Virus record (IMG/VR): IMGVR_UViG_3300016484_000437
Location: 1-34,849 of that record
DNA length: 34,849 nucleotides
Strand: one strand, 5' to 3'
Source: a virus
Lineage: Duplodnaviria > Caudoviricetes
The notes under the pieces were generated by a model. The model had not been told where the DNA came from and searched no databases. It saw only the letters and a program-made list of their open reading frames with translations. A program made the translations under genes and the position numbers. The first letter of the stretch is position 1, and every line of letters begins with the position of its first letter. Of this stretch, positions 3,094 to 30,615 are shown one piece after another.

Positions 3094-5252
3094 CGTATGC
3101 GAGCGTTCTTGCGAGACAAGCCAAGGAAGTGACGACGTTTGCGAAAATCACGCGCAAGAAAAAAATCCTCTACTCTGAACTCGACGGTTCCAATCAGATT
3201 TCGTTTCCCTACGGAACGCCAATTTCAATCACCGGTTCAGATGGCAACGCAACCAACGGTGCGATCTATACGGTTGTCTATTCAACGAGCGAATGGTCGT
3301 ATGATTCCGCAACTCAGATTCTCACGATTGACGATCCGTTCAGCGATGAATTTGGGAACTCGGTTGCTGACGTATCTGGCGCCGTGTTTTTCGTTGAATA
3401 CGAATCAAGGTTTGCGTCCGAGGAAGTCGTATTTCACGACATACCGACATCAAGTGCGTCAAGCATTGTGAAATGGAATGAGGGAATTTTGAACACGCCC
3501 GAGGTTCGTCGATCGGTCGCCGATGCATTTGGCGGACTTCTGACGAGTGAATCCTCGCCGCTCGTTGTTGCCCACAATGGTTCAAACCTTTGGGAATCTC
3601 TCTACGATGAATCGTTTTTCAGATGCCGCGTTGACATCTGGCAATGCGTCGGACCGTTGAGAACAACGAATTGCCAAAAGATTTTTTCGGGCCTGATCGA
3701 CTCGGTAACATTCAACGACGTGTCCATTGAGTTCGCTCTCATCGAAAACACGCGGTTGATTGACGGTTCGTATCGGGGCCGATTCTATACCTCGGACACG
3801 TTCTCAAAATTGGATCCGTCTTTTGAGGGTCGACCGATTCCAATTTGCTACGGCAACGCGTTGTGGGTTCGCGCCGTCAATATCGACTACATTTCAGACG
3901 GTGCCACGACATCCGACAACCGAGTTTGGGCGGTCTACGACAAACGCTTGATTGAATCAGGAACTCAAAATCTCACACTTGGAACCGTCACGGCATTGGT
4001 TCCACCGGAATACCGAATCAGCGGAATGGCCGAGGCTGACGTCCGCTGCCTCAAGGCTGGCGACAGAATCAGACGATCATCTGACGGCGCTTGGGCGTTC
4101 GTTCTTCAAATCGAATCAGCAACGCAAATCCGAATTGGCGCCAGTAGTCACACGCCAGCGGTTGGCAACCTATACGTTCGACCGGCGATCCAGAATATTT
4201 ATTTCCAAGTTCCGAGCAAACAAGCAACCGTTCTCGCCGCTCAAATCAATGACAGTTCGACAATCAGTTACGGAGAAACGAACGATGTTGTCACGGTCAA
4301 TTTGACCAGCGGTTTTGAGGCGTATGCAACCGCACTTGGAATCACGACGATTGATCCAAATGATTTTGAGGTTTGGGTTGAGGTTTGCGGCGCCCCTCAA
4401 CGTTTGTTGTTTGACGGTGCGTACATCGGTCAACTTGATTTCAACGACAATGTGAGTTGCCTTTATTGGTATCTGACCGAGGTCGTTGGAATTCCTGACG
4501 ACTACATCAACGGCCAATCGTTCATTGATGCAATTGCATCTATGTCGGACCCAGGTGATGAGGCATTGTTCACTCATCCAACGTGGTCTAGTGACTTTGA
4601 GGATCACAAGACGGTGATCGGTCGATTGCTTGCGACGCTTGGCGCGATTGGATATTTCAACAATGAGGGGAAATTCACAATCAAGTTGCGTGGGCTTCTC
4701 GGCACGCCAGATTTTGAATTGACTGACGCTGATTTGATTGGACGGCCACGGTACGAAATCAGGCACGAAGACATGGCGGCATTCCAACTCGACGCATCGA
4801 GCGAGATTGTCGGCGTTCAAACGAACGTACTCAAAACAAAGCCGTCAACTTTTCAAACCGTTATCCGAACGGTTCAGGGTCCCGTCGACGTACCATATTC
4901 GTCGATATACGGTCGAGCCCAAGGCGCACTCGATAACGTGTCAATTCAGACGTACGACATCAATCGGACTCGTGGCGGTAGCAACTTGCCGCTGTGGCCA
5001 GGACTTGAGCGTCGTGCGATCTATTGCGGCCGTCGACGATTGTTGTGCAAGGTCCGGGCATCTGGCGAAGTCTTGGACGCGGAACCGGGTGACATCGTAT
5101 CGTTGACCAGAGAATTGATTCCGGGCGAGGCTCGAGTTGCCGGAACGGAATTCACTCGCAAATATTTCGTCGTTGAAACATCCCGCGAAGGCGCGGCAAT
5201 TGACCTGGTTCTCGACGACCAGTTTGCAATTGAAGAGAATGGGAGCTTTTGA
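3090..5252 (+). CDS. Putative tail tip/baseplate hub protein (720 aa)
   Basis: Size and position; motifs GRPIPICYG and AEPGDIVSL typical of siphovirus central tail proteins. Confidence 0.65.
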   Translation: MTYASVLARQAKEVTTFAKITRKKKILYSELDGSNQISFPYGTPISITGSDGNATNGAIYTVVYSTSEWSYDSATQILTIDDPFSDEFGNSVADVSGAVFFVEYESRFASEEVVFHDIPTSSASSIVKWNEGILNTPEVRRSVADAFGGLLTSESSPLVVAHNGSNLWESLYDESFFRCRVDIWQCVGPLRTTNCQKIFSGLIDSVTFNDVSIEFALIENTRLIDGSYRGRFYTSDTFSKLDPSFEGRPIPICYGNALWVRAVNIDYISDGATTSDNRVWAVYDKRLIESGTQNLTLGTVTALVPPEYRISGMAEADVRCLKAGDRIRRSSDGAWAFVLQIESATQIRIGASSHTPAVGNLYVRPAIQNIYFQVPSKQATVLAAQINDSSTISYGETNDVVTVNLTSGFEAYATALGITTIDPNDFEVWVEVCGAPQRLLFDGAYIGQLDFNDNVSCLYWYLTEVVGIPDDYINGQSFIDAIASMSDPGDEALFTHPTWSSDFEDHKTVIGRLLATLGAIGYFNNEGKFTIKLRGLLGTPDFELTDADLIGRPRYEIRHEDMAAFQLDASSEIVGVQTNVLKTKPSTFQTVIRTVQGPVDVPYSSIYGRAQGALDNVSIQTYDINRTRGGSNLPLWPGLERRAIYCGRRRLLCKVRASGEVLDAEPGDIVSLTRELIPGEARVAGTEFTRKYFVVETSREGAAIDLVLDDQFAIEENGSF

Positions 5253-6370
5253 TGGGAACACGGGCCTATGATTTCATCACCGGGTTTGACCAGACGTCAC
5301 AACCGCAAGGTTCAAGTCCATCTGGCCTTGCGGATTTTGCAACGCTGGAATATGGCGTCGACAACTACGCAATCTATATTGACACAATCGCAAACGCGAA
5401 ACTGATTGCCGCAACATTCCGGGCCGATGGGAAACCACTCTACGTCAAGGAATTGCTGGCTTGGTTTTATTTCGATTCGGCGTCGGCGGCGACGGGTGAT
5501 GATCAAAACGTCATCACGCCAGCCTTTGGCACCGGTCGATGGTTGAGAGTTCCGATCAAGGGTTTTGGAACGTTTCAGGACGTGGCAACATCAGCAACGA
5601 TTGCCGCGATGGCGTCCTCAACGCCCGTGGTTCGATTGACTGGCTCAACCACGACTGAACTCCAAGGCATCACGGCGGGAATCAAGGAACAAATCCTCGC
5701 GCTATACAACGCAAGTTCCGCCGTCATCACGGTCAAACATGAGTCGGGTTCAGCGTCGGCGGCCAATCGTTTGTCGCTCCAACAATCACGCGATGTGACA
5801 TTGCAAGCGGGCGGAGCATTGTTGCTCAGGTACGATGCAACTTTGACCCGATGGGTTCCGGCCGCTGGATCCGGAGCAGGCGGCGGCGGCATGGGCGGCT
5901 TCCCGGTCAAATGGGTTTCCGACGTGAACGCACCGTTGAACGTGCAGGAGAACCTCATGAACGTCTGGCAATTTCAGGCTGGCGGGTCACAAGCGCTTTA
6001 TGCGGTCTACAAGGTCCCGGCCTCGTATTCGGCGGGCACGCAATTGTCGCTGAGATTTCAATGGTATTCAGCCGGAACAAGTGGAACCGTTTTGCTGAGA
6101 ACCGTCGCGACATTGATCCGAGCGGCAACTGACGCCGTGACATCGACGACCAATCAGGAAACGTCGACGAACTCAGCCGTCACGCTGTCAGCCGGAACGG
6201 TGAACGAACCGCAAACGGTTGCGGCGAACCTGACCAACGCGACCGGTCAAATCAATTCGGTTGCGGTTTCTGCCGGCGATCTTATCATCATCAAACTTGA
6301 GCGAGCGACCGACACGGCAACCGCCGATGCGGCATTGATTGCGGACAGCGCGGAGGTATCTGAGACATGA
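5252..6370 (+). CDS. Tail fibre/receptor-binding adaptor-like protein
   Basis: Ser/Thr/Ala-rich, GRWLR motif, poly-Gly hinge (GSGAGGGGMGG); after tail hub gene. Confidence 0.55.
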   Translation: MGTRAYDFITGFDQTSQPQGSSPSGLADFATLEYGVDNYAIYIDTIANAKLIAATFRADGKPLYVKELLAWFYFDSASAATGDDQNVITPAFGTGRWLRVPIKGFGTFQDVATSATIAAMASSTPVVRLTGSTTTELQGITAGIKEQILALYNASSAVITVKHESGSASAANRLSLQQSRDVTLQAGGALLLRYDATLTRWVPAAGSGAGGGGMGGFPVKWVSDVNAPLNVQENLMNVWQFQAGGSQALYAVYKVPASYSAGTQLSLRFQWYSAGTSGTVLLRTVATLIRAATDAVTSTTNQETSTNSAVTLSAGTVNEPQTVAANLTNATGQINSVAVSAGDLIIIKLERATDTATADAALIADSAEVSET

Positions 6371-8418
6371 TGCGTTCAATCTTTGGTTTCATCATTGCGA
6401 CGTTTTTGGTTCTTGGCGTTTTCATTGATCGAGCGCCAGCCCAACTCAACGATTTCGACCGTCAGGAATTCACGTTCGAGAACGCGCTGGCGGGGAAAAA
6501 CCCAGGTTTTGAATCCGGCACCGTTCAATGGACGGCATCGGGCGGGACATTTGTCGTCAACTCGGGAACTCAAATCGTTCCAAACTCGAAACAATTTGCG
6601 ACGTGGGACTCAAACTCGGCCGGTCAAACGCTGCAGACGGCGGCGGTCACGGTTCCAAAAACTGGCAATTGCGAGTTCTCGATTTGGATTGCGGTTCCGA
6701 GTGGAACTGCGACTCACACAATCACGGTCACTGATGGGACCAACGACCTCGTCACCGCGCAAACGATAACGAACAACACGAATGCACTGAAACACATTGT
6801 CAACTTTCCTTGCCCGTCCAGTGGAACGGTTCGCGGGAAACTGACCTCAGTCGCGAGCAACGAACCGTCAATCAGTCTGGACAACGGGCGGCTTGGAAGC
6901 GCGACCAACGTTGGGTCAGTAGCCCAAGCGTTTCACAAAGGTTCAATATTGATGACGGGTTGTACCGACTGGACAAGGAGCAACGTCGCGTTTGGAAATT
7001 TCACCGCAACCGCAGGTTGCTCCTATACCGTGACCGGCGATGTCTTATCTCCGTCGACGTTTATTCCTGGATTCAGACTGCAAAATGTTGCACCTGGCCG
7101 ATATTTGATAATTGCCCGAGGATATTTTGGGAAAACGGTAACAACAACGAACTCAGATATTTCGTTCAGATTTTCTGACGGAACAAACACATTTTCGGAG
7201 CAGGTCGCAATATCGGTGTCATCGTCGAGCGGGCAATCATTCGGAGTTGGAGAATTAACTGGTTCAATTGGTTATACAACAACACAATCGACATTAACGT
7301 TTCAAATTCAAGGACAAACCTCAAACACTGCATCAAGCACAGCGGCCGTCATTTCGGATGACGGGGGTTCATTTGCGACTAGTGAAATCAATGGATTGCA
7401 ATTTGATGTTTTCTATTTCCCAAGTCACAGTCAGCAGGTCGTGACGCCTGAGCAGCAGGGGTGGTGGGCTGCTGGAAATATCTCTGGAGCAAATCCAAGT
7501 TTGGGCGTTGGAAACGTCTCAACATTCACTGAAATCACGAGTGCATCCCTTACATTGACTCCGAAAAGCGGCTCGGCTCCGGTCGGTATTATGTGTTCAG
7601 GAACAAACGCCGCCGCGACTCCATCAACCAGTTCAACTACTTGTTCTGCTGGAAGTGAGTCTATTGGATTTAATGTTTCGGTTCCAAGGTCTGGAGCTTA
7701 TGAGATTTGTTTTCATTTTGCACACAATATGACTTCAAATTCAAATGCAGCAGGGGTGACAACTTTTCAAGTGATCCGAACCCCAACCAATAGTCAGACA
7801 ATTTCAGAAGAGGGCGGTGGGAAAACTCACAGCGGTAATGGCGGCGGGTCAACTTCCGGAGCTAGTAACGTAGCATTTATGTCGCGCTCAGCTTGCGGTA
7901 ATTTCAATTTATCGGCTGGGATAAATGGCTTCCGATTGATGTACGAGCAAAGTGTTGGCCCAACTCCGCCAGTCGCCAGTGATGTCGTAGCTGATGCAGA
8001 TGCTTCCGCTGGGCAGCGAGACATTTATTTTTTGATGAAGCCGATTTCCCAGCAGCAGCAAGCCATCCTCGCGAACAGCGTGAGCACGTTCAATCAAAAT
8101 GGGTCCTATGCCTTTGGCGCGGGCGTCACGGCGGCAGATTGCACAAGTACCCCGTGCACGTTGTATGATGGCTCGACGCCTGGGGTAACGATCACGCGCG
8201 CTTCGACCGGCGTTTATTCGCTCAACTATGCTGGTTTGGGTATAACGAAAACGCCAACGTGCACAATCGGTCACAACCGTGGCTCAGGGGATTATAAGTG
8301 CGACGGTGGTACGGCAACGACAACCTCGCAAACGATATTCTGTTATCAAAACACGACTGGTTCGACATGGGTTGCTGTTGATTCAAGACCGTCGGCAGTT
8401 TGCCTTGCAAACAGATAA
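6367..8418 (+). CDS. Ser/Thr/Gly-rich tail-fibre/adhesin-like protein with N-terminal signal peptide (683 aa)
   Basis: N-terminus MMRSIFGFIIATFLVLGVFIDRAPA-Q; NPGFESG..W motif of CBM-like domains; C-terminal TRASTGVYSL motif seen in fibre tips; 14 Cys. Confidence 0.6.
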   Translation: MMRSIFGFIIATFLVLGVFIDRAPAQLNDFDRQEFTFENALAGKNPGFESGTVQWTASGGTFVVNSGTQIVPNSKQFATWDSNSAGQTLQTAAVTVPKTGNCEFSIWIAVPSGTATHTITVTDGTNDLVTAQTITNNTNALKHIVNFPCPSSGTVRGKLTSVASNEPSISLDNGRLGSATNVGSVAQAFHKGSILMTGCTDWTRSNVAFGNFTATAGCSYTVTGDVLSPSTFIPGFRLQNVAPGRYLIIARGYFGKTVTTTNSDISFRFSDGTNTFSEQVAISVSSSSGQSFGVGELTGSIGYTTTQSTLTFQIQGQTSNTASSTAAVISDDGGSFATSEINGLQFDVFYFPSHSQQVVTPEQQGWWAAGNISGANPSLGVGNVSTFTEITSASLTLTPKSGSAPVGIMCSGTNAAATPSTSSTTCSAGSESIGFNVSVPRSGAYEICFHFAHNMTSNSNAAGVTTFQVIRTPTNSQTISEEGGGKTHSGNGGGSTSGASNVAFMSRSACGNFNLSAGINGFRLMYEQSVGPTPPVASDVVADADASAGQRDIYFLMKPISQQQQAILANSVSTFNQNGSYAFGAGVTAADCTSTPCTLYDGSTPGVTITRASTGVYSLNYAGLGITKTPTCTIGHNRGSGDYKCDGGTATTTSQTIFCYQNTTGSTWVAVDSRPSAVCLANR

Positions 8419-8438: not shown

Positions 8439-8633
8439 GTGAAGGAATCCATCCAAACATTTTTTGAGGTACTCGCAACGTTCTTACTGATTTTCGGCGG
8501 GGCATTCGCAATCGTGTTCTTGACGGGTTGCGCAAGCAATATCCTGGTCAGCAATTGCCGTGAGGTCCAGGTCCAGGGCGATTCTAAAAAGCGTTGGGTT
8601 TGCGACAAACAATTTTCCGATCAATGGCGCTGA
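8439..8633 (+). CDS. Small lipoprotein
   Basis: AAGGAG RBS, GTG start, hydrophobic stretch and lipobox LTG-C. Confidence 0.6.
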   Translation: MKESIQTFFEVLATFLLIFGGAFAIVFLTGCASNILVSNCREVQVQGDSKKRWVCDKQFSDQWR

Positions 8634-8666
8634 TTCGTGATTGAATGAAACGCGGAGGATTTGTTC

Positions 8667-8936
8667 ATGCATGAATTTTTCGCGCGTTTTGATTGGCTGG
8701 CATTCATCCTCGCAATCGTAGGTTTTGTCGTTTGGCTGGTTCGTCTCGAGGGTCGCGTCAAACAAAACGAACGCCTGACCGAAATTGCGCAAGGGTCAGT
8801 TGACGAACTCAGAAAACGCCATGAACAATTGGACTCTGAACTGGTTCGCAAACTCTCAAGACTTGAGACCGCAATCGCGAGAATCGAGGGGTACTTGAGG
8901 GGCAAAACCGAATCACAAGAACACATGGAGGAATGA
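8667..8936 (+). CDS. Single-TM coiled-coil membrane protein, holin/lysis accessory candidate
   Basis: GGAGG RBS; TM segment WLAFILAIVGFVVWLV then coiled coil; in lysis cassette. Confidence 0.5.
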   Translation: MHEFFARFDWLAFILAIVGFVVWLVRLEGRVKQNERLTEIAQGSVDELRKRHEQLDSELVRKLSRLETAIARIEGYLRGKTESQEHMEE

Positions 8937-9244
8937 TGGCAAAAGAACTCAAGGAATCAAAAGAGATTGTTCTCGCGGTTGCATACGTTGGCGTCAAGGC
9001 GCTGCAAGCATACAAGACGGCCAAGGCTGACGACAAAATCGACTTGTCGGATGTTGGCGTTGCATTCTCGCTTCTCATGGACCCAGTCCTCAAGGACAAG
9101 GTTGAGGCGGCGATTGCTGACGCGGACAAACTTGGCGAGGAATTCAAGGACGTGAATCTCTTCGACGTCGTCCATGCGCTGGTTCAAGTTCAACCAGACA
9201 TCGAAGCGTTGGTTGCTGAAATCAAGGCACTCAAGTCCGTCTAA
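8933..9244 (+). CDS. Hypothetical protein in lysis cassette (possible holin-like)
   Basis: GGAGG RBS, overlapping start; amphipathic helices. Confidence 0.45.
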   Translation: MMAKELKESKEIVLAVAYVGVKALQAYKTAKADDKIDLSDVGVAFSLLMDPVLKDKVEAAIADADKLGEEFKDVNLFDVVHALVQVQPDIEALVAEIKALKSV

Positions 9245-9273
9245 GATCGGAAAACCGAAACCAGGGGGAAATC

Positions 9274-9522
9274 ATGTGGAAGGCCATCTTCGAGGTCATC
9301 AAGGCGTTGCCGCAATTGTTCAAGTTATACGAACAATGGGAACGCGCAAAACTCAGACGCATGCAAGCCGAAGAGGAACAGCGTCGCAAAAATGAAATCG
9401 AACAAGGAATCGCAACCGGTGACACCGATCGCATTGAACAGGCGATTGGATCCGGAAACGCTGGCTTGCCAGCTCGAGAACAAACCGGCGTTCGCACGCG
9501 TCCAGTAAGGAAACAACCATGA
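9274..9522 (+). CDS. Hypothetical protein, possible inner-membrane spanin-like component
   Basis: GGGGG RBS; amphipathic N-terminus plus coiled coil; overlaps downstream lipoprotein gene. Confidence 0.4.
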   Translation: MWKAIFEVIKALPQLFKLYEQWERAKLRRMQAEEEQRRKNEIEQGIATGDTDRIEQAIGSGNAGLPAREQTGVRTRPVRKQP

Positions 9523-9887
9523 CAAACTTGATGAGGATTTTCGCCGCTTGTTTCATCATCATGGTTTCAGTTGGCGCGACAAGTTGCCAACGAAAAAAGG
9601 ATGATTTGTTCAAGGCCGTCGACGCTGACGTTTGGCTCCATGACAAATTGCCGCCCGAGATTTGCGACCAACATCCGGACTTGAAGGATGGTCTTGGCGT
9701 ATATCGCAAGGTGCGTTGTACCGAGCAAGCAAGGGTTGCAGGGTTGTGCGGTCCAGAGGATAAGCACTACGAGGAAGTGATTCCGTATTGTGACCCAAAA
9801 CTTGAAACCCATATTTCGATGTCAAAAACCGATTTCAAAAAATGGATTGATTTGGCCAAGCGCGAAATCAATGAGTGCCTCCAATGA
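9519..9887 (+). CDS. Lipoprotein, possible outer-membrane spanin
   Basis: Signal peptide with lipobox-like ATS-C; several Cys; directly before endolysin. Confidence 0.5.
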   Translation: MTNLMRIFAACFIIMVSVGATSCQRKKDDLFKAVDADVWLHDKLPPEICDQHPDLKDGLGVYRKVRCTEQARVAGLCGPEDKHYEEVIPYCDPKLETHISMSKTDFKKWIDLAKREINECLQ

Positions 9888-10663
9888 GAAACATTTGGCG
9901 GAAAATCAAGAGTTGGTTCAAACGAGACGAACCGACCGGCGTTGTCATGCGGCCGCGCCCGGAACCGGAAACGGAACATCCTCGCAAACTTGAGCGGAAA
10001 AATGTCCTCATTGATTTTGCCGTTCAATCGACGGTGCGAATGCCAGTTCGCGGAACATACTCAGACGGCTGGCCAAAAGGACTTGTCGTTCATTTCACGG
10101 CTGGCCGCCGAGGCGGAATCCGCAAGGCGCTTGATTCCGTCAAATCAGGCTCAGAAAAGGGTTTCACTTATTTGGTCATTGGCGATGACGGGTCACTTGT
10201 CCAAGGTCATCCGGTTGAGCAATGGGGGTATCATGCCGGTGAATCGAAATGGCCTGGCCTCAAGTCATCGGTTCACAAGGACTTGATTGGCGTTGAAATC
10301 AATTGCGCTGGGAAACTCGAGCGCATTGCACCCGGCAAATTGCAGACATGGTTTGGAACGCCAGTGCCGCTTGAAAACGCAAGACGGGTTGAGGAATCCG
10401 AGTGGGGTTGTCCGACCGGGTACTATGAGAAATTCACCGACAAGCAAGAGGAGACCTTGATGCGTCTCATCCTCTGGCTCAAGCGAAACGACCCGACCGG
10501 AAAAACGTTCTCGTTTGATTTCGTTCTTGGGCATCATGAGGTTTCAGGAAAACGAGGCATTGGCCGTTGGCGGAAAAACGACCCAGGCGGGTCGCTTTCG
10601 ATGTCAATGGACAAGTTCCGCGAACGCCTCAAGCAACAATGGGAAATGGACTCACGCGTCTAG
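9884..10663 (+). CDS. Endolysin, N-acetylmuramoyl-L-alanine amidase (Amidase_2-like)
   Basis: Motifs VVHFTAG, YHAG, IGVEI, GHHEV, KNDPG. Confidence 0.88.
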   Translation: MRNIWRKIKSWFKRDEPTGVVMRPRPEPETEHPRKLERKNVLIDFAVQSTVRMPVRGTYSDGWPKGLVVHFTAGRRGGIRKALDSVKSGSEKGFTYLVIGDDGSLVQGHPVEQWGYHAGESKWPGLKSSVHKDLIGVEINCAGKLERIAPGKLQTWFGTPVPLENARRVEESEWGCPTGYYEKFTDKQEETLMRLILWLKRNDPTGKTFSFDFVLGHHEVSGKRGIGRWRKNDPGGSLSMSMDKFRERLKQQWEMDSRV

Positions 10664-10873
10664 TTTGCCGTCAGTTCGTTTGACGATCGCGATTTGGCGG
10701 CCGCCGCATTGAGCCTCGATTTCGAGAAGTTCAAGCGCCATTGATTTCGCCGTCTCGCGATCGATTCTCACCGCAAATTCCTGGTCGTCCAAATAGATGA
10801 TGATGACCGGGCAAACGTTTCCGTCGTCGTCTCGCCCAATTGCTACCGCAAATCCCGTGGTTCTTTTGTCCAA
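10652..10873 (-). CDS. Hypothetical protein (73 aa)
   Basis: GGAGG RBS before TTG at 10873; overlaps end of upstream minus-strand gene. Confidence 0.55.
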   Translation of the reverse strand: MDKRTTGFAVAIGRDDDGNVCPVIIIYLDDQEFAVRIDRETAKSMALELLEIEAQCGGRQIAIVKRTDGKLDA

Positions 10874-11661
10874 GTGAATTCCTCCAACCACGGGTGCCAC
10901 AATTTCGCGAGGTCTTGGTCGCCGTGAGCTTCTGGCCGATGCTTCCAATACATCGCACCAGCCAATTTGTTTTTGATTCCAAGTTTGATCGTGCCGTCAG
11001 TTTTCGGCATCGCCCATGCGTGAAGGTTTCGCGCAACCCACGCGACCGGCGTTGGCATCAACGCCCACGCAATCCAATACTGCAAAACCGCATTGTCAAC
11101 GTCGGCATCATCCGTTGATCGGCGGACAAACCTCATCGTTTCATGCTTCCAACGCCAGGGTATCGCCTCAACCAGTGCCCCGAAAACAAGCAACAAATCA
11201 GTGACGAACAAGACAGGCCACAACAGAAGTGAGAACGGGTGCCAACATCGAATGATCAGTGAGGCTTGGCCAATGAGATGATCACGCCAATTTGGGGCAA
11301 ATCCCAGTCGCAAAACCACGCCAAGCGTTGTCTCCGAAAGCGTTTTCCACGATCGACCGATGCGGCAAAGCACGAAACCGTTGATGAGCTGGTCACGCGA
11401 AATCATCTTCGGGTCAGTCCAAAACGACGCATGCGGTTTCGGATCCAGGGCGGGGTCCTGGTCATGGTCGATTTGTCGTCCAGGGTGCCGCCGCCAGTTC
11501 CCACGGCCAAGGTACAATTGACCGATCACGAATCGTGCGAACCAATACGCGGACAAGTCGCCGCGTGAGAGACGCCCAGAGGCCCACGCCCCAGACCGTT
11601 GAAGCGTGTCGCCGCCGTCCCCGTCGAGCGCAACTGGCAAACCGAATTCATCCTTGAACAT
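10843..11661 (-). CDS. Hypothetical Trp-rich membrane-associated protein (272 aa)
   Basis: GGAGG RBS; motifs DGDGGD, WRRHP, SRDQL; hydrophobic segment LLLWPVLFVTDLLLVFGALV. Confidence 0.7.
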   Translation of the reverse strand: MFKDEFGLPVALDGDGGDTLQRSGAWASGRLSRGDLSAYWFARFVIGQLYLGRGNWRRHPGRQIDHDQDPALDPKPHASFWTDPKMISRDQLINGFVLCRIGRSWKTLSETTLGVVLRLGFAPNWRDHLIGQASLIIRCWHPFSLLLWPVLFVTDLLLVFGALVEAIPWRWKHETMRFVRRSTDDADVDNAVLQYWIAWALMPTPVAWVARNLHAWAMPKTDGTIKLGIKNKLAGAMYWKHRPEAHGDQDLAKLWHPWLEEFTWTKEPRDLR

Positions 11662-11711: not shown

Positions 11712-12989
11712 TTGGAAAAAGCGATTTCAATTCGTTGCACGGGCGCGGCCGCAATGGACATCGAGGACTTGTCTCCGTTTCAGGACGACATCAAAACAAT
11801 GACACCTTCGACCCTCAAAAAACTTGAGAACGTCATCATTTCCCAAGGGTTTTCGGAACCGATTGCCGTCTGGCCAAGCGAAGGACGCAATTGGATTTTG
11901 AACGGACATCAACGTCATACCGCGTTGCAATCGCTCAGGTCCAAAGGCTGGTTTGTTCCCCCGGTCCCGGTCGCACTTGTCGATGCGGCTGACGAGGATG
12001 AGGCAAGGAAAAAAGTCCTCACGCTTGCAAGCCAGTTTGGCGATTTCAACCAGGACCATTTGCTCGAGTTCGTTGCCAAGGCCCGGCTTGATACTGATTG
12101 GATCCGGAACAATGCAAGACTTGCCGCCGGTGATTTCAAATGGCCAGTTTTGGTAACTCCAAAAGACGACGAAGAAGTTCCCGCGCCGCCAGAAACGCCA
12201 ATCGTTCGACCAGGCGAATTGTTCATTCTTGGCGACCACAGAATACTTTGCGGTGATTCGACCGTTGAGAGCGACGTTGCGCGTTTGATGAATGGGGAAC
12301 ACGCGTCAGTTTGGTTATCAGATCCTCCATACGGAATTTCGTATGTTGACAAAGTTGCACAAGAAAAAGGTCAGGCAATTGGATACAAACCAATTGCCAA
12401 TGATGAACTCGAAGACAAGGCTCTTTACGATTTCATTCTGAAAGTCATCACGGTTTCTCTACCGCACATGAAAAAAGGTTTTGCGTTCTATATGTGGCAT
12501 GCAATGAAAATGCAGGCATATTTCTCGCAAGCCGCCGCCGCCGCCGGAATACTATTTCACCGTCAAATTATTTGGGTCAAACCGCAATTTGTTTTTGGAC
12601 GCGGACACTATCACTGGCGTCATGAACTTTGCCTGATGGGATGGCTACAGGGAAATGAACCTCCATTCTACGGTTCAAAAAACCAGTCAACGGTTTGGGA
12701 GGTTGGCCGCGAAAACGACAAAATTCATCCAACGCAAAAGCCAATCGATCTCTGGAAGCCATCAATATTGAATCACACAAATGAGGGTGAAATTGTTTAT
12801 GAACCATTCAGCGGAAGTGGCTCAAATTTGATGGCTTGTGAGCAAACAAAGCGCCGATGTTTCGCAATGGAACTTGAGCCTACCTACGTTCAAGTCGCAA
12901 TTGAGCGTTGGCAAAACGCCACGGGCAAAATCGCTCACCGTGATGACGGCGAGACATGGGACTCAATCAAGGCGACTCGGAACGGCTGA
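11712..12989 (+). CDS. ParB-like N-terminal domain fused to N6A/N4C DNA methyltransferase (beta order)
   Basis: ILNGHQR ParB/Srx-like motif; HRILCGDS, DPPY, HPTQKP, EPFSGSGS motifs. Confidence 0.9.
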   Translation: MEKAISIRCTGAAAMDIEDLSPFQDDIKTMTPSTLKKLENVIISQGFSEPIAVWPSEGRNWILNGHQRHTALQSLRSKGWFVPPVPVALVDAADEDEARKKVLTLASQFGDFNQDHLLEFVAKARLDTDWIRNNARLAAGDFKWPVLVTPKDDEEVPAPPETPIVRPGELFILGDHRILCGDSTVESDVARLMNGEHASVWLSDPPYGISYVDKVAQEKGQAIGYKPIANDELEDKALYDFILKVITVSLPHMKKGFAFYMWHAMKMQAYFSQAAAAAGILFHRQIIWVKPQFVFGRGHYHWRHELCLMGWLQGNEPPFYGSKNQSTVWEVGRENDKIHPTQKPIDLWKPSILNHTNEGEIVYEPFSGSGSNLMACEQTKRRCFAMELEPTYVQVAIERWQNATGKIAHRDDGETWDSIKATRNG

Positions 12990-13167
12990 CCTTGAGGTTT
13001 TTCGGTGCGACGATGAGAACCTTGACGTTGTGGGGCGTGGCCGACTCAATGCGAATGATTGAGTCGCCAATCGTGAACAAGGTTCCGGGTCGGATGTTGA
13101 ATTTCAAAACCCCGTGGGTTTCAGGTACAAAATGGCGGTCCCTCAATTTTGGCTTGGCGGGTTCCAA
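12967..13167 (-). CDS. CsrA/RsmA-like RNA-binding protein
   Basis: VLKFNIRPGTLFTIGD...NVKVLIVAPKNLKVSRSE aligns by eye with CsrA MLILTRRVGETLMIGD...QVRIGVNAPKEVSVHREE; GAGGG RBS before TTG. Confidence 0.7.
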   Translation of the reverse strand: MEPAKPKLRDRHFVPETHGVLKFNIRPGTLFTIGDSIIRIESATPHNVKVLIVAPKNLKVSRSESP

Positions 13168-13613
13168 TCAAACACCCTCATTTGTTGACCGTTGTCGTAT
13201 GAAATCGTGAGCTTCTGACCAAGGATTCCAAACCTCGTCATTGATTTCAACCACTCGCAACGCGTGTCGTTGATGCCAATTGGCTCGACCTCGTACAACG
13301 ATTCATTCACATTCGTGACCAGCCAATCGGTTGGACCGCCGTCAATCGTGACGCCAATGCGACAAGTCACGGTTCCCGTGATTGGGTCCTCGGCGCGATA
13401 TTGCATCACCGACTCAGTCCCCATCAGGGAAACGAATTGCAAGTCGAGATGTTCAAAAAACCCGTCATCGTCGCTGGTCCAGATCGTATTGAGGTATGGG
13501 GGCAACTTGGGCTTGTCTTGCAATGCGGATTGCGGACCGCAAGCGGTTGCCGCCAGCGCGATGGTTGCCAAGAACACAATCCAAGCAAGTCTCAAGTCGG
13601 CTGATATTCTCAC
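13143..13613 (-). CDS. Lipoprotein, possible superinfection-exclusion protein
   Basis: Signal peptide with lipobox ATA-C; GGGGG RBS, GTG start; in early leftward operon. Confidence 0.6.
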   Translation of the reverse strand: MRISADLRLAWIVFLATIALAATACGPQSALQDKPKLPPYLNTIWTSDDDGFFEHLDLQFVSLMGTESVMQYRAEDPITGTVTCRIGVTIDGGPTDWLVTNVNESLYEVEPIGINDTRCEWLKSMTRFGILGQKLTISYDNGQQMRVFDWNPPSQN

Positions 13614-16459: not shown

Positions 16460-17025
16460 CATCGAACGGGCATTGCGCGATTTGTCGCGAAGTCACCGGG
16501 TATTGGATCGAGCAAATCAAGGAATGGCGTTGCGAGTTGCACTTGCCAACAAGACCGATTCCGCCAACCAAACAAGAACGGGAGCAAGCCATCATGACAC
16601 GCAAGGAGCGCCGAGCACTTGAGCGAGCAAAGGAAAAGCACGTCGCCGCGTTGATGCGTTCCGGATATTCGTCCGACTGGACTGACATCACCGAACTTGA
16701 ATCAACGAAGAAATTGACCAGCCGCATGACCAATCCGCCCTACAAGGTCGTGATGAACGGTCGGTTCATAGTCCAGATGTTCAAGCAATCGACCGCGTGG
16801 GGCGAGTGCACGCGACTCATGATTCGTTGGAACGACGCAAGGCCGGTTCACGATTGGCAGATTTTTCAGCGCATCAAGAATGACTTGGTTGGCGAGGAAC
16901 GAACCGCCGTGGAAGTATATCCAAAACAATCAAACTTGGTTGACGTTGCAAACATGTATTGGCTTTTCGTATTGCCTGAGGGGTTTGATTGTCCGTTTGA
17001 AATGGTTGAGGGGAAATTTCAATGA
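16456..17025 (+). CDS. Conserved phage hypothetical protein (DUF7694-like C-terminal domain)
   Basis: Motif W..FQRIKNDLVGEE..AVEVYP....LVDVANMYWL. Confidence 0.6.
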   Translation: MTSNGHCAICREVTGYWIEQIKEWRCELHLPTRPIPPTKQEREQAIMTRKERRALERAKEKHVAALMRSGYSSDWTDITELESTKKLTSRMTNPPYKVVMNGRFIVQMFKQSTAWGECTRLMIRWNDARPVHDWQIFQRIKNDLVGEERTAVEVYPKQSNLVDVANMYWLFVLPEGFDCPFEMVEGKFQ

Positions 17026-17810
17026 AACAAACCAGACCGGCTTTGAGATATTTCGGCGGGAAGTGGCGTCTCGCTGACTGGATCGTTTCGCACTTGCCGC
17101 CTCATCGCGTCTATGTCGAACCGTTTTGCGGTGCCGCGTCGGTATTGTTCAAAAAGCCCAGGTCATACGCCGAAGTCATCAATGACCTAGATGATTCAAT
17201 TTTCAATTTGTTCTCGGTCATGCGATGCCCGCGAGCGCATCGCGATTTGAAGGCTTCGTTGGAATCAACGGCGTATTCAAGGCGTGAATTTGAACTTGCC
17301 CATGTGTTTCACCCGGATCCAGTTGAATCCGCAAGGCGTTTGATCATCCGTTCGTTCATGGGTTTCGGTGCCGACTCGGTGACAAACATCGAATCGAAAA
17401 CCGGGTTTCGATCAAACTCAAATAGATCAGGGACAACCCCGGCGCATGATTGGATCAACTATCCGAGTCAAATTGTTGCAATTCACGAGCGACTAAAGGG
17501 CGTTGTGATTGAAAACCGAGATGCGTTTGATTTGATGAAAACTCACGACGGACCGGAAACGGTTTTCTACATTGACCCGCCATGCCATTCAGACACGCGT
17601 CGTTCAGGCCGTTATCAATTCGAGTTCTCACATGACGACCATGTCCGATTGATTGAGGTGATGCGAGAATTGAAGGGCGCTTGCGTTGTGAGCGGATACG
17701 AACACCCGCTCTATGATTCGCTTGGCTGGACAAAACACGTCAAGGAAGCACGGGCGGACAAGGCTGGCAAACGCCTTGAATGCATCTGGATCAAGGAGGC
17801 TCATGAATGA
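17022..17810 (+). CDS. DNA adenine methyltransferase (Dam/D12 class), catalytic motif reads DPPC
   Basis: YFGGK, YVEPFCG, EVINDLD, IENRDA, FYIDPPC. Confidence 0.85.
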   Translation: MKQTRPALRYFGGKWRLADWIVSHLPPHRVYVEPFCGAASVLFKKPRSYAEVINDLDDSIFNLFSVMRCPRAHRDLKASLESTAYSRREFELAHVFHPDPVESARRLIIRSFMGFGADSVTNIESKTGFRSNSNRSGTTPAHDWINYPSQIVAIHERLKGVVIENRDAFDLMKTHDGPETVFYIDPPCHSDTRRSGRYQFEFSHDDHVRLIEVMRELKGACVVSGYEHPLYDSLGWTKHVKEARADKAGKRLECIWIKEAHE

Positions 17811-20183: not shown

Positions 20184-21074
20184 ATGTCCGACGTTGAAAT
20201 CAAAACCGACAAACCTGAACCGCAACCCGCGCCCAAGCCAGCCAGACAAATCGCCAAACTTGCCGAGGCACTTGCCAAGGCTCAAGGCGAATTCGTGCAA
20301 CCTGAGAAAAACAAGGAGGTTGAGGTTCGCAAGGAAGGACGGGTTTTGTACGCAACCCGATACGCGGATTTGAAAAACGTCATTGAGGCGTTTCGCGTGG
20401 CACTCAGCCGAAACGGACTTGCGTTCACGCAGAAAACCCGCGAGACGCCAAACGGCTGGCGTTTGGTTTTGACGCTGATGCATTCCTCAGGCGAGTTTGA
20501 CGAAACGTCAATGCCGATCAATTTGGAACAAGCGCCCCAACAAGTCGGTTCGCAGCTGACATACCTCAAGCGATACCAAGCCGCCGCGTATTTTGGAATT
20601 GCGGCCGACGACGACGACGACGCAAACGGCGCCCACGGGAATGAGGCCGAGTTCAAGGACCAAAAAGCCAAACCAAAAAATCAACCCAAGCCTCAGGCGA
20701 CTGGTTCAAAACCAATCACCCCCGCCGTCAAGCCTGAACCCAAACCAGCGATCAAGCCAAAAGTTGAACCTCATCGTTCGGAACATTCACCGGATCCATC
20801 TGAGGTCGCCAGAGATTCAATGGATTCAAACGCAAACGGCGAACAACGACCGGCAGCGAGGCCCACTCTCACGGTTCAGGACGTTGCGCAAATGGGGGCC
20901 AAGAAGGGTTGGCATGCCCAACTCATGAACCGATTCATGGTTGTTCAGTTTGGGAAATCCAATGCGGCCAGCCTCACACAAGACGAACTTCACTCAATGG
21001 CGGAATCAATTCAGACCATGAACGGGTTTGACGCGACGACGTTCATCGAGCAAATGGAAAAATCAAAGGCTTGA
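20184..21074 (+). CDS. ERF-family single-strand annealing protein
   Basis: ALAKAQ, YADL, HSSGE, GSQLTYLKRY, GIA.DDDDDAN; Pro/Lys linker and C-terminal domain. Confidence 0.88.
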   Translation: MSDVEIKTDKPEPQPAPKPARQIAKLAEALAKAQGEFVQPEKNKEVEVRKEGRVLYATRYADLKNVIEAFRVALSRNGLAFTQKTRETPNGWRLVLTLMHSSGEFDETSMPINLEQAPQQVGSQLTYLKRYQAAAYFGIAADDDDDANGAHGNEAEFKDQKAKPKNQPKPQATGSKPITPAVKPEPKPAIKPKVEPHRSEHSPDPSEVARDSMDSNANGEQRPAARPTLTVQDVAQMGAKKGWHAQLMNRFMVVQFGKSNAASLTQDELHSMAESIQTMNGFDATTFIEQMEKSKA

Positions 21075-21123: not shown

Positions 21124-21396
21124 ATGGCAACCGACTATCAACGAATTGTTTCAACGATCGCCAAACTTGAGGGGAAAAAACGCCAGGTCAAGGTTGGCGA
21201 CATTCGCGAAATTATCCGATGCCTCGTCGCAATCGAAGCGGCAAGCCGTATCCAGCGAGTTCTTGGTCCTGAATATTCCGTCGGACCGCTTGAGGGTGAA
21301 ACTGGATTCGTGTTTGACCAGCTCGGACGTCAGGCCCATGCATTGGCCGTCCGCGAGTGGAAACGAATCAAGCGCGAGCAACGGAAAAAGAAATGA
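21124..21396 (+). CDS. Hypothetical basic protein
   Basis: GGGGG RBS; EGKKRQVKVGDIREI. Confidence 0.65.
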   Translation: MATDYQRIVSTIAKLEGKKRQVKVGDIREIIRCLVAIEAASRIQRVLGPEYSVGPLEGETGFVFDQLGRQAHALAVREWKRIKREQRKKK

Positions 21397-22013
21397 GTCG
21401 TTGGCGTAATCACGCGCAATGGATTCTTGCGACTTGGCCGGTTCAATGGTTCCTGCAGGTCGCATTGCCAAAAATCCGTTTCACTACTCAACCGCCAAAA
21501 ATGACAAGCGGGCAATTCCGCGAATTCATCGCCGCAATCCAACCCGGCGACATCGTGTTCTCAAAGGATCGGTCCAAGTTGTCGAACATACTCATCGGCG
21601 GATTCTGGGCGCACGTCGGGGTTGTGGACAAGTTCGGCGAAATCGTTGAAGCACACTATCCAAGGGTCCGGCGAATTCATCCAGCCGAGTTTTGTTTCAC
21701 GTCCGACCTGGTAGGAATTGTCCGGCCAAATGACGCGCAGCTCAGGCAAACAATCGCCGAACAATCGCCGTCCCTGGTCGGCATCCCATACGACACGCTT
21801 TTCGTTGACGGTCGCGAATCCCTTTATTGTTCCGAACTCGTTTGGACATTGGATCCATCAAACAAACTTGGTTTTGATACGACTGACGAGGTTGGCCTCG
21901 GTATCGGATACGTTGCCCCCGATGACATTTTCAAATCCAAGAACGTTGAATTCGCCGTGATATTTCAGCCGGAACCAGTGAACCATCCAATCAGGAGCGA
22001 GTTCATTGACTAA
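21393..22013 (+). CDS. Permuted papain-like NlpC/P60 enzyme (YiiX/YebB-like)
   Basis: QPGDIVF, WAHVG (His), PYD, LYCSELV (Cys after His). Confidence 0.8.
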   Translation: MSRWRNHAQWILATWPVQWFLQVALPKIRFTTQPPKMTSGQFREFIAAIQPGDIVFSKDRSKLSNILIGGFWAHVGVVDKFGEIVEAHYPRVRRIHPAEFCFTSDLVGIVRPNDAQLRQTIAEQSPSLVGIPYDTLFVDGRESLYCSELVWTLDPSNKLGFDTTDEVGLGIGYVAPDDIFKSKNVEFAVIFQPEPVNHPIRSEFID

Positions 22014-29082: not shown

Positions 29083-29916
29083 ATGGACGAAATGTTCAAA
29101 TCGGATGCAGAAGCAGCGGCGGCGATTCCAGAATTGTGGGCGGCGGCGTTCTATCCAACGTTGCTCGAAAAACTCCCATTCGCGGGATCGGTAGCAACCA
29201 ACTATCAAGGTGTCATCAGCAACCTTGGCGACACGGTCAACATCACGTCATGGCCGCAGTTCGACGAGGCTGAGGAAATCCTTGAGAACCAAGCGGTCGC
29301 GGCTGACGCTGTCACTGCGCAAAACATTCAGTTGCTCATCAACAAGCAACTTGCGAAGGATTTCATCATCACTCGCAAAACTGAATTGCAATCACTTGAA
29401 ATCATGGGCGCGTTGCGAGACCTCGCATTGCACTCAATTCTCAAGAAGATGCAAAAAATCATCATCGCGGCAATTGTCCCTTCGACATCGCCCGATCACA
29501 CGATTGGATATTCGTCCGGCACGACGCTCCAACTCGTCGACATTCTCGCGGCAAAAGAATTGCTCGACAATGCTGACGTTGAAGAAGCTGGCCGCACAAT
29601 GATCCTTGGCGCCGCTCAGTACAACGACCTGTTCAACATCGCGGGCATCGTATCAACTGACTTCGGTCAGTCTGGTTCGCTTGTCAGCGGTCAAGTGAAC
29701 GGTCTTGTTCTCGGCATGCAAGTGAAATGGACAAGCGAGGTTGGCAACACGGCCTACTTCTCTCATCCATTGTTCATTGAAATGGCGGTTCAACAGGCGC
29801 CAACTCCAAGCGTTCATGACCTTGGCGTCAGCGGCGTTCGTGGAACTCGCGTCAACATGGAAGTGTTGTTCGGCTTGAAACAAGCCAGCGACCTCCGCGT
29901 TGTCACCGTTTCCTAA
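29083..29916 (+). CDS. Major capsid protein
   Basis: IPELWA, GDTVNI, ADVEEAGR, VLFG motifs; GGAGG RBS; follows scaffold. Confidence 0.85.
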   Translation: MDEMFKSDAEAAAAIPELWAAAFYPTLLEKLPFAGSVATNYQGVISNLGDTVNITSWPQFDEAEEILENQAVAADAVTAQNIQLLINKQLAKDFIITRKTELQSLEIMGALRDLALHSILKKMQKIIIAAIVPSTSPDHTIGYSSGTTLQLVDILAAKELLDNADVEEAGRTMILGAAQYNDLFNIAGIVSTDFGQSGSLVSGQVNGLVLGMQVKWTSEVGNTAYFSHPLFIEMAVQQAPTPSVHDLGVSGVRGTRVNMEVLFGLKQASDLRVVTVS

Positions 29917-29944: not shown

Positions 29945-29970
29945 ACCCTGCCCGGAATCGGGCGGGGTTT
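29945..29970 (+). terminator. Hairpin after capsid gene (weak intrinsic terminator or stabiliser)
   Basis: ACCCTGCCCG-GAAT-CGGGCGGGGT with short T run. Confidence 0.5.
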
Positions 29971-30009
29971 CCCAAGAAACGAAAACCAAATTCAAAACCA
30001 GGAGACACA

Positions 30010-30561
30010 ATGGAATTCTTGAAAACAATGATGATTGGCTTCGGGCTGATTGTCGCGATGACATTCGGCCAAGGCGCAGAAGCGCAAGTGATGAAACAAA
30101 CGTTTCAGAAACAAGTGCACTTTGCGGTGAGCGGTTGCGCGGCTGGAAATGGCGGCGACTCGTATGCGGCGCCCAAGTGTTTCGGTGACGTTGACGTGTG
30201 GGCAATCCCCGCCGGAACGGTCATCGAGCGCGTCTATGCAATCATTGATACCGGCATCACCGGAACAACTGATTTCGACATTGGCGACGATGATTCGGCA
30301 AACGGTTTCCTTGATGGTTCGTTGTCACTCACAATTGGAACGGCTGGCATGTACGGCTGGAACGCGAAGGTTGCTGGATCGTACTTGCGAGTTCAAACCG
30401 CTGGCGCGACTGACGCACTGGACATCTATGTTGTTCCGAATGCGAAATACTATTCGGCATCTGGCAAGGAAGTGAAAATGGATGCGACGGGCGCGGCCAC
30501 TGGCTCGAGCCAAGCGCGAATCGTCATCGAGGGATATTTCGTCGGACCGAAACAACCCTGA
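30010..30561 (+). CDS. Capsid decoration/spike-like protein with N-terminal signal peptide
   Basis: Position after capsid; IPAGTVIERV...FDIGD beta-sandwich pattern; N-terminus MEFLKTMMIGFGLIVAMTFGQGAEA-Q. Confidence 0.55.
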   Translation: MEFLKTMMIGFGLIVAMTFGQGAEAQVMKQTFQKQVHFAVSGCAAGNGGDSYAAPKCFGDVDVWAIPAGTVIERVYAIIDTGITGTTDFDIGDDDSANGFLDGSLSLTIGTAGMYGWNAKVAGSYLRVQTAGATDALDIYVVPNAKYYSASGKEVKMDATGAATGSSQARIVIEGYFVGPKQP

Positions 30562-30577
30562 TTGATTTCGTGACCGT

Positions 30578-30615
30578 ATGGCGACGGGTTTTCCATCCCT
30601 GCCCGTCGCCATTTT
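30578..30615 (+). terminator. Putative intrinsic terminator
   Basis: 11-bp perfect stem ATGGCGACGGG/CCCGTCGCCAT followed by TTT. Confidence 0.55.

Follow-up and report, generated by a model that had tools for sequence, protein, structure and literature searches.

The 34,849-nucleotide stretch of DNA analysed here (the window) comes from a tailed phage and encodes terminase, a portal-sized gene, scaffold, major capsid protein (MCP), tail tube, tape measure and amidase. Its ends cut the tape-measure gene, and its assembly agrees without differences with a public contig, possibly its source. The MCP gene (29083..29916, plus strand, 277 residues; PF19821, E 2e-6; phrog_267, E 1e-14) encodes no leader, our leader rule being negative on 122 of 122 MCPs, and is followed after 93 nt by an ATG-initiated ORF of 183 residues (30010-30561, plus strand). 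This is the slot in which the original prediction had placed a decoration protein, and the arrangement is constant, with the MCP directly upstream of the corresponding gene in all 31 viral loci read. In many distant members (e.g. L122, L113, L127) a gene of 65-80 residues sits between the two. The ORF comprises a predicted Sec/SPase I signal peptide (residues 1-26, 30010..30087, plus strand), cut between AEA and Q, and a mature β-sandwich domain of 157 residues (30088..30561, plus strand) which, from the model and alignment described below, is assigned as a capsid cement (decoration) protein with a predicted disulfide between C43 and C57, the exactly two cysteines noted originally.

Translation signals and flanking structures are likewise as first described. 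The strong Shine-Dalgarno sequence AGGAG (30000..30004, plus strand) lies 5 nt upstream of the ATG, and real hairpins flank the gene, one of 10 bp in the MCP-cement spacer (29945..29968, plus strand), which may be an attenuator or mRNA stabiliser, and one of 12 bp followed by a short T run (30578..30612, plus strand), which may be a weak terminator or stabiliser. Their folding z-scores of -4.8 and -5.0, respectively, were obtained on intervals trimmed after viewing, those of the whole spacers being only -1.9 and -2.6, and a terminator scan lists neither, probably because of the short T runs. The spacer is at least 62 nt long in 17 of 18 leader-bearing but only 3 of 12 leaderless close relatives, and the long spacers of the leader-bearing loci fold at -10 to -41 kcal/mol.

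The ORF has no Pfam, PHROG or PDB-sequence match. Its AF2 model (pLDDT 83) shows a separate N-terminal helix, formed by residues 2-18 of the leader, and a β-sandwich. The top three VIA-align matches of this model are all cement-containing capsid chains, 7eel_H (Z 9.5, rmsd 3.0, 110 residues aligned), 8h89_J (Z 9.2, rmsd 3.3, 119 aligned) and 7dou_4 (Z 8.8, rmsd 3.8, 108 aligned), whose scores of 8.8-9.5 stand only modestly above background; a siphophage baseplate chain follows (8gtc_S, Z 8.0). The Foldseek comparison with decoration proteins that had been proposed gave as best match the same Pam1 capsid chain, 7eel_H (E 3e-4). Fold and gene position thus support the cement identity, and the product is predicted to be a β-sandwich cement of the Pam1/GP4/KHP40 type. 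No other cement-like gene was found in the window genome or in most leader-bearing relatives. The loop at residues 117-148 holds most of the invariant residues yet is poorly modelled as a monomer, which suggests that it forms an interface. A complex prediction with two MCP and two mature cement chains scored 0.00 and counts neither way.

The known cements of Pam1 (PDB 7EEL chain H), Ralstonia phage GP4 (gp1, 8H89), Helicobacter phages KHP30/KHP40 (7DN2, 7DOU) and phi24B (gp67) have the same predicted fold, mature size and gene position beside the MCP, and are described as trimers that attach to the outside of the capsid (PMC9698820; bioRxiv 10.64898/2026.04.10.717836). The window protein is 9-16% identical to the Pam1/GP4/KHP30-type cements, and differs from the Pam1, GP4 and KHP proteins in its Sec-type leader, its Cys pair, an extra conserved loop of 30 residues, and its presence in a phage with tail-tube and tape-measure genes. 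GP4 gp1, by contrast, is described as traced from Ala2, and therefore lacks a cleaved leader.

The window leader, MEFLKTMMIGFGLIVAMTFGQGAEA/Q, shows n-, h- and c-regions with A-E-A before Q27; its n-region is weak (E2, K5; no net positive charge), whereas close relatives have K2. A homologue search found 285 proteins, 120 of them listed, and our alignment (A1) joins the window protein to 118 of the listed ones, with P0001 excluded as near-identical and P0114 as a fragment. Judged by eye and with a home-made signal-peptide rule, 79 of these 119 aligned listed members carry a Sec-type leader and 40 are truly without one, and the residues preceding the conserved F32 number 19-44 in the former and 3-14 in the latter, with no overlap. 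Among the 79 listed leader-bearing members K or R occurs within the first six residues in 76, D and E are absent from residues 4-16 in 77, and a small-x-A motif is present in 75, while neither a Tat motif nor a lipobox was found in any. Leader identity among them is 25%, against 67% for the core. When each listed protein is cut after its first small-x-A, the predicted mature stub before F32 has a median of about 9 residues, compared with 8 in leaderless forms, so cleaved and leaderless N-termini match. These features point to a Sec/SPase I signal peptide cleaved after A26, the AEA-Q type of leader originally proposed.

The homologues lacking the N-terminal extension, which the original prediction had named as evidence against itself, do exist (40 of the 119 listed), but we take them as an internal control that strengthens the idea. 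They are real forms and not start-call errors, as each of the 14 leaderless loci has an in-frame stop 1-17 codons ahead of the short start. Conversely, a Shine-Dalgarno-backed internal start near the cleavage site was found in none of 18 leader-bearing loci. Across related loci the home-made rule fires on 24 of 72 cement genes and 1 of 702 core structural genes, and a cement-like gene is present in 115 of 220 locus groups and leader-bearing in 25 of them, including the distant subtypes L314, L122 and L340. In L340 (4134-5405) a leaderless cement follows the MCP and, after a small gene, comes a further cement-like paralogue, which has a leader, two Cys and an additional segment at its N-terminus. 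L320 has a second leader-bearing match elsewhere in the locus, and L113 (2196-3038) has two tandem leaderless cement-like genes behind the MCP.

Leader-bearing and leaderless cements have 35 near-invariant positions in common, and in 30 close loci cement identity is 55% between leader-bearing pairs, 56% between leaderless pairs and 53% between mixed pairs, MCP identity being similar. From these alignments cement function seems to be kept in both forms. An MCP tree with 105 rows requires 10 changes of leader state, at least 6 of them forced by well-supported branches. The cement-core tree, which is short, needs 12 changes but does not reject a single origin (AU p 0.059), so that cement gene exchange between phages may explain part of the pattern. 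A search for longer, fused cement forms found none, which is weak evidence.

The two forms differ in cysteine parity. Mature leader-bearing cements (79 listed) have 0 Cys in 42 cases, 2 in 36 and 1 in a single case, whereas the 40 listed leaderless cements have 0 in 16, 1 in 17, 2 in 6 and 3 in one. Odd counts therefore occur in 1 of 79 listed leader-bearing members against 18 of 40 listed leaderless ones, and in 1 of 33 against 14 of 26 representatives of 50% clusters. The contrast survives collapse at 80% and at 70% identity (0 of 16 against 6 of 11 at the latter), and at 65%, where 10 rows are left, has p 0.07. These counts share ancestry, 20 listed leader-bearing members carrying C43/C57 and 10 carrying C58/C163. 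Cys pairs occupy six different position sets. An even-Cys bias is described as a mark of exported, disulfide-forming proteins in PMC2823432. Since air after lysis would reach both forms, a parity that follows the leader speaks for passage through an oxidising compartment, and the even mature Cys count in 78 of the 79 listed leader-bearing members bears out the disulfide-type pairing that had been suggested. It does not make the two cysteines a family feature, C43/C57 being specific to a clade (20 of the 79 listed). The family therefore cannot owe its export to a conserved C43/C57 disulfide, and because 42 of the 79 have no Cys, disulfides in general cannot be the sole reason. Glycosylation marks (N-x-S/T, TN, D-S/T-x, D/E-x-N-x-S/T) showed no difference between the leader-bearing and leaderless cements of A1.

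The second leader of the window is on a predicted tail protein. Behind a hub-like gene, a leaderless, Cys-free protein of 372 residues (5252..6370, plus strand; PF25692 at 125-198; 0 Cys), assigned as a tail-fibre anchor or adaptor, precedes a leader-bearing protein of 683 residues with 14 Cys (6367..8418, plus strand), and this in turn a lysis region (8439..10663, plus strand) in which an amidase gene (Amidase_2, E 7e-9, at 9875-10663) accompanies small genes for membrane and lipoprotein-like products that by eye resemble holins and spanins. The 683-residue protein is modelled as a chain of β-sandwiches, with CBM-like and TNF/C1q-like domains, and is predicted to be a tandem β-sandwich adhesin forming the distal tail fibre. 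Its homologues number 208, of which 120 were listed; 98 of these 120 pass the home-made leader rule, in support of the leader originally assigned to it, and 116 have an even Cys count, with 8-22 Cys. Alignments spanning hundreds of residues (E 2e-22 to 3e-46) link four leader-bearing tail proteins to the distal portion of fused fibres that have no leader, and in relatives the N-terminus of the short anchor matches that of the fused fibre. An anchor-type first gene after the hub, sought by pattern, was found in 30 of the 60 groups with a visible tail end. It is 344-934 residues long in the 20 groups without a following leader-bearing gene and 111-313 residues in 8 of the 10 groups with one, among which L138 is probably a lipoprotein. 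The window's own anchor, missed by the pattern, was assigned by eye; it may be the docking site of the exported adhesin.

Several tail ends vary on this arrangement. L352 (group G020) has, at 16959, a separate tail-end protein of 658 residues without a leader, with a stop and a Shine-Dalgarno sequence just upstream, which by eye resembles the N-terminus of a leader-bearing fibre. Runs of three to five leader-bearing tail-end genes occur at L358:5880-9960 (G023) and G005:22286-18129 (minus strand), and a lipoprotein-like gene of about 220-310 residues often lies between fibre and lysis genes (L146, L093, L101, L243, L053, L140, L138; about 120 residues are visible in L243).

The profile of the 683-residue family matches the Bdellovibrio bacteriovorus MAT fibre Bd2734 (PDB 8OKW; HMM E 3e-20; Foldseek TM by target 0.79), and the two share homologous TNF-like adhesin domains as well as a signal peptide and disulfides. 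All MATs are described in PMC10769870 as signal-peptide proteins, with a conserved β-rich domain of 130 residues directly behind the signal peptide; the TNF-like domain is described there as the fibre tip. MATs are displayed on the bacterial surface with this domain at their end, whereas that of the 683-residue protein is internal, not terminal, and its gene sits in a phage tail operon between anchor and lysis genes. We considered the protein as a MAT and rejected this, as the gene is inside the tail operon of a virus record.

Co-occurrence of the two signal peptides in relatives, anticipated by the original prediction, is seen as a tendency. A leader-bearing tail protein is present in 8 of 10 phages with a leader-bearing cement and in 10 of 31 without (p 0.012), in a table entered by hand from which L122 was dropped because its tail region is cut off, and L109 and L209 because their cement was not located, and in which lipoprotein-like genes and the 180-residue gene of G009 were scored negative. 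With kinship taken into account, which leaves 3 independent pairs, the association is not significant. A distant leader-bearing cement accompanies a leader-bearing homologue, 35% identical, of the 683-residue protein in G017, while L265 has a leader on its cement but a fused, leaderless fibre. The pattern of 8 of 10 against 10 of 31 indicates that, as judged from predicted leaders, export is commoner on tails and cement export mostly added on top.

The best explanation of these data, which we regard as probable, is Sec export of the cement, periplasmic cleavage and disulfide folding, and docking on finished heads at lysis. Export itself is very likely from the leader sequences; docking on virions is the weaker step. 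On late expression the leader would direct the protein through the host Sec machinery into the periplasm, where it would be cleaved after A26 and the C43-C57 disulfide formed. Holin and endolysin would then open the cell, and the mixing of compartments would let cement bind finished heads, perhaps as trimers at the capsid three-fold sites by analogy with Pam1, GP4 and KHP30. The 683-residue adhesin would take the same route and dock on the 372-residue anchor already on the tail. Cement arriving so late would be useless during DNA packaging and would instead serve as late armour or an adhesive coat. Post-lysis docking faces rapid dilution, and disulfide formation gives no reason for export in the 42 listed leader-bearing forms that have no Cys. 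Decoration of mature capsids is feasible, as the Dec protein of phage L is described as binding mature capsids in vitro (PMC7602432). Like Dec, T4 Soc and Hoc are dispensable proteins that can be added to finished capsids, as a post-lysis route requires, though their folds differ; for Soc and Hoc this in vitro binding is given by the title of reference 59 in PMC7602432. The extracytoplasmic maturation of outer head and tail parts that was first proposed is partly supported, by the cement fold, both leaders and the Cys pairing, but not by a conserved Cys pair. A more general formulation, which we consider about as likely as not, is a two-compartment virion whose core is made in the cytoplasm and whose whole outer coat, cement and TNF/C1q-type fibre, is Sec-secreted, disulfide-folded and added at lysis, the export switch being repeatedly gained and lost through the leader and the fibre-anchor split.

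The alternative that survives best, though we consider it unlikely, is that the cement-fold protein and the adhesin are exported for a role outside the virion, as periplasmic or surface decoys, superinfection blockers or host adhesins like the Bdellovibrio MAT fibres. Sec export would part the cement from the heads, the 683-residue protein has a domain in common with the surface-displayed Bd2734, and the leader-bearing paralogue beside a leaderless cement in L340 fits a separate role for exported copies. Such a role would, however, leave the window genome and most leader-bearing relatives, in which a sole cement-like gene was found, with no other candidate cement. Nor does it sit well with the late head operon position, the retention of the family's invariant positions, a divergence no faster than that of leaderless forms, or the split tails, where the leader-bearing gene replaces the distal part of a fused fibre.

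We find it improbable that the leader acts as a membrane tether, weak or left uncleaved, with much of the protein cytoplasmic (or freed by a protease), heads decorated before lysis and the cysteines oxidised later by air. This would make timing and stoichiometry easier, and would suit the window n-region, with no net positive charge, and the half of leader-bearing forms that are Cys-free. Against it, a textbook n/h/c layout in a variable sequence is found in 75-77 of the 79 listed members, leaderless homologues meet the same air oxidation yet keep odd Cys counts, and there is no Shine-Dalgarno-backed internal start. Less probable by far is a staged release in which particles meet periplasmic proteins before lysis by crossing the membrane or budding; it would solve the dilution problem, the one point for it, but the lysis region is an ordinary amidase one and the leader rule fires on only 1 of 702 core head and tail genes. 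An artefact, whether a misassigned start codon or a hydrophobic extension arising by chance, with the true start near M28, is hardly credible despite the GTG-ATG at codons 27-28 of the window gene, as AGGAG lies ahead of M1 and not of M28, relatives do not conserve the internal start, and the leader recurs in 79 listed homologues and in distant subtypes.

Late docking of an exported coat, the reading we prefer, would depart from the general view that tailed-phage particles are complete in the cytoplasm. Phage proteins are otherwise known to use the host Sec pathway, as the window cement is predicted to do: the M13 coat proteins pVIII and pIII carry signal peptides, but assembly of these filamentous particles takes place in the membrane and involves no lysis, and the Sec-exported and SAR endolysins are not virion parts. 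Our full-text literature search listed no report of exported virion proteins of tailed phages, though subscription papers or supplements could hold one, and the main text of a review of decoration proteins (PMC7602432) is without the terms 'signal', 'periplasm', 'secret' and 'lysis'. While fold and gene slot are known, the assembly route is therefore possibly undescribed. The locus adds a matched leader-bearing and leaderless family, a parity switch, repeated state change and a split-fibre architecture in a phage of long-tailed type. If the route is true, it implies a late extracytoplasmic assembly step and opens host disulfide chemistry to virions. The family lends itself well to tests, its leader-bearing and leaderless forms being about 55-65% identical and in the same gene slot, hence swappable. 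It is also a caution for annotation, in that a signal peptide encoded within a phage structural operon does not by itself mark a gene as one for lysogenic conversion or lysis.

The source is an uncultured freshwater phage, and its lysis region suggests a diderm host. More speculatively, the Bd2734-type domain hints at Bdellovibrio-like hosts, where bursting within the prey envelope would stop particles and coat proteins from drifting apart. Genomes scanned with the cement alignment gave no match, and with the MCP alignment three short, phage-sized contigs of this lineage (L197, L198, L199) in MAGs of three unrelated taxa, which are probably mis-binned; the Atlas clusters are viral. Among cultured phages, cement, tube and fibre were all without a match, and there were only terminase matches of 27-30% and weak, partial MCP matches. 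In a sludge metatranscriptome the MCP and cement genes of a relative about 90% identical are covered by contigs, which in themselves show neither transcription, ends nor levels.

Elsewhere in the window, ORFs at 10843-11661 and 13143-13613 (both minus strand) have no Pfam match, the second starting with a lipoprotein-like leader by eye, and a CsrA-like gene lies at 12967-13167 (minus strand; PF02599, E 1e-4, below the cut-off). The genes at 11712-12989, 17022-17810, 20184-21074 and 21357-22013 encode two DNA methyltransferases, an ERF-family recombinase and a papain-like C92 amidase.
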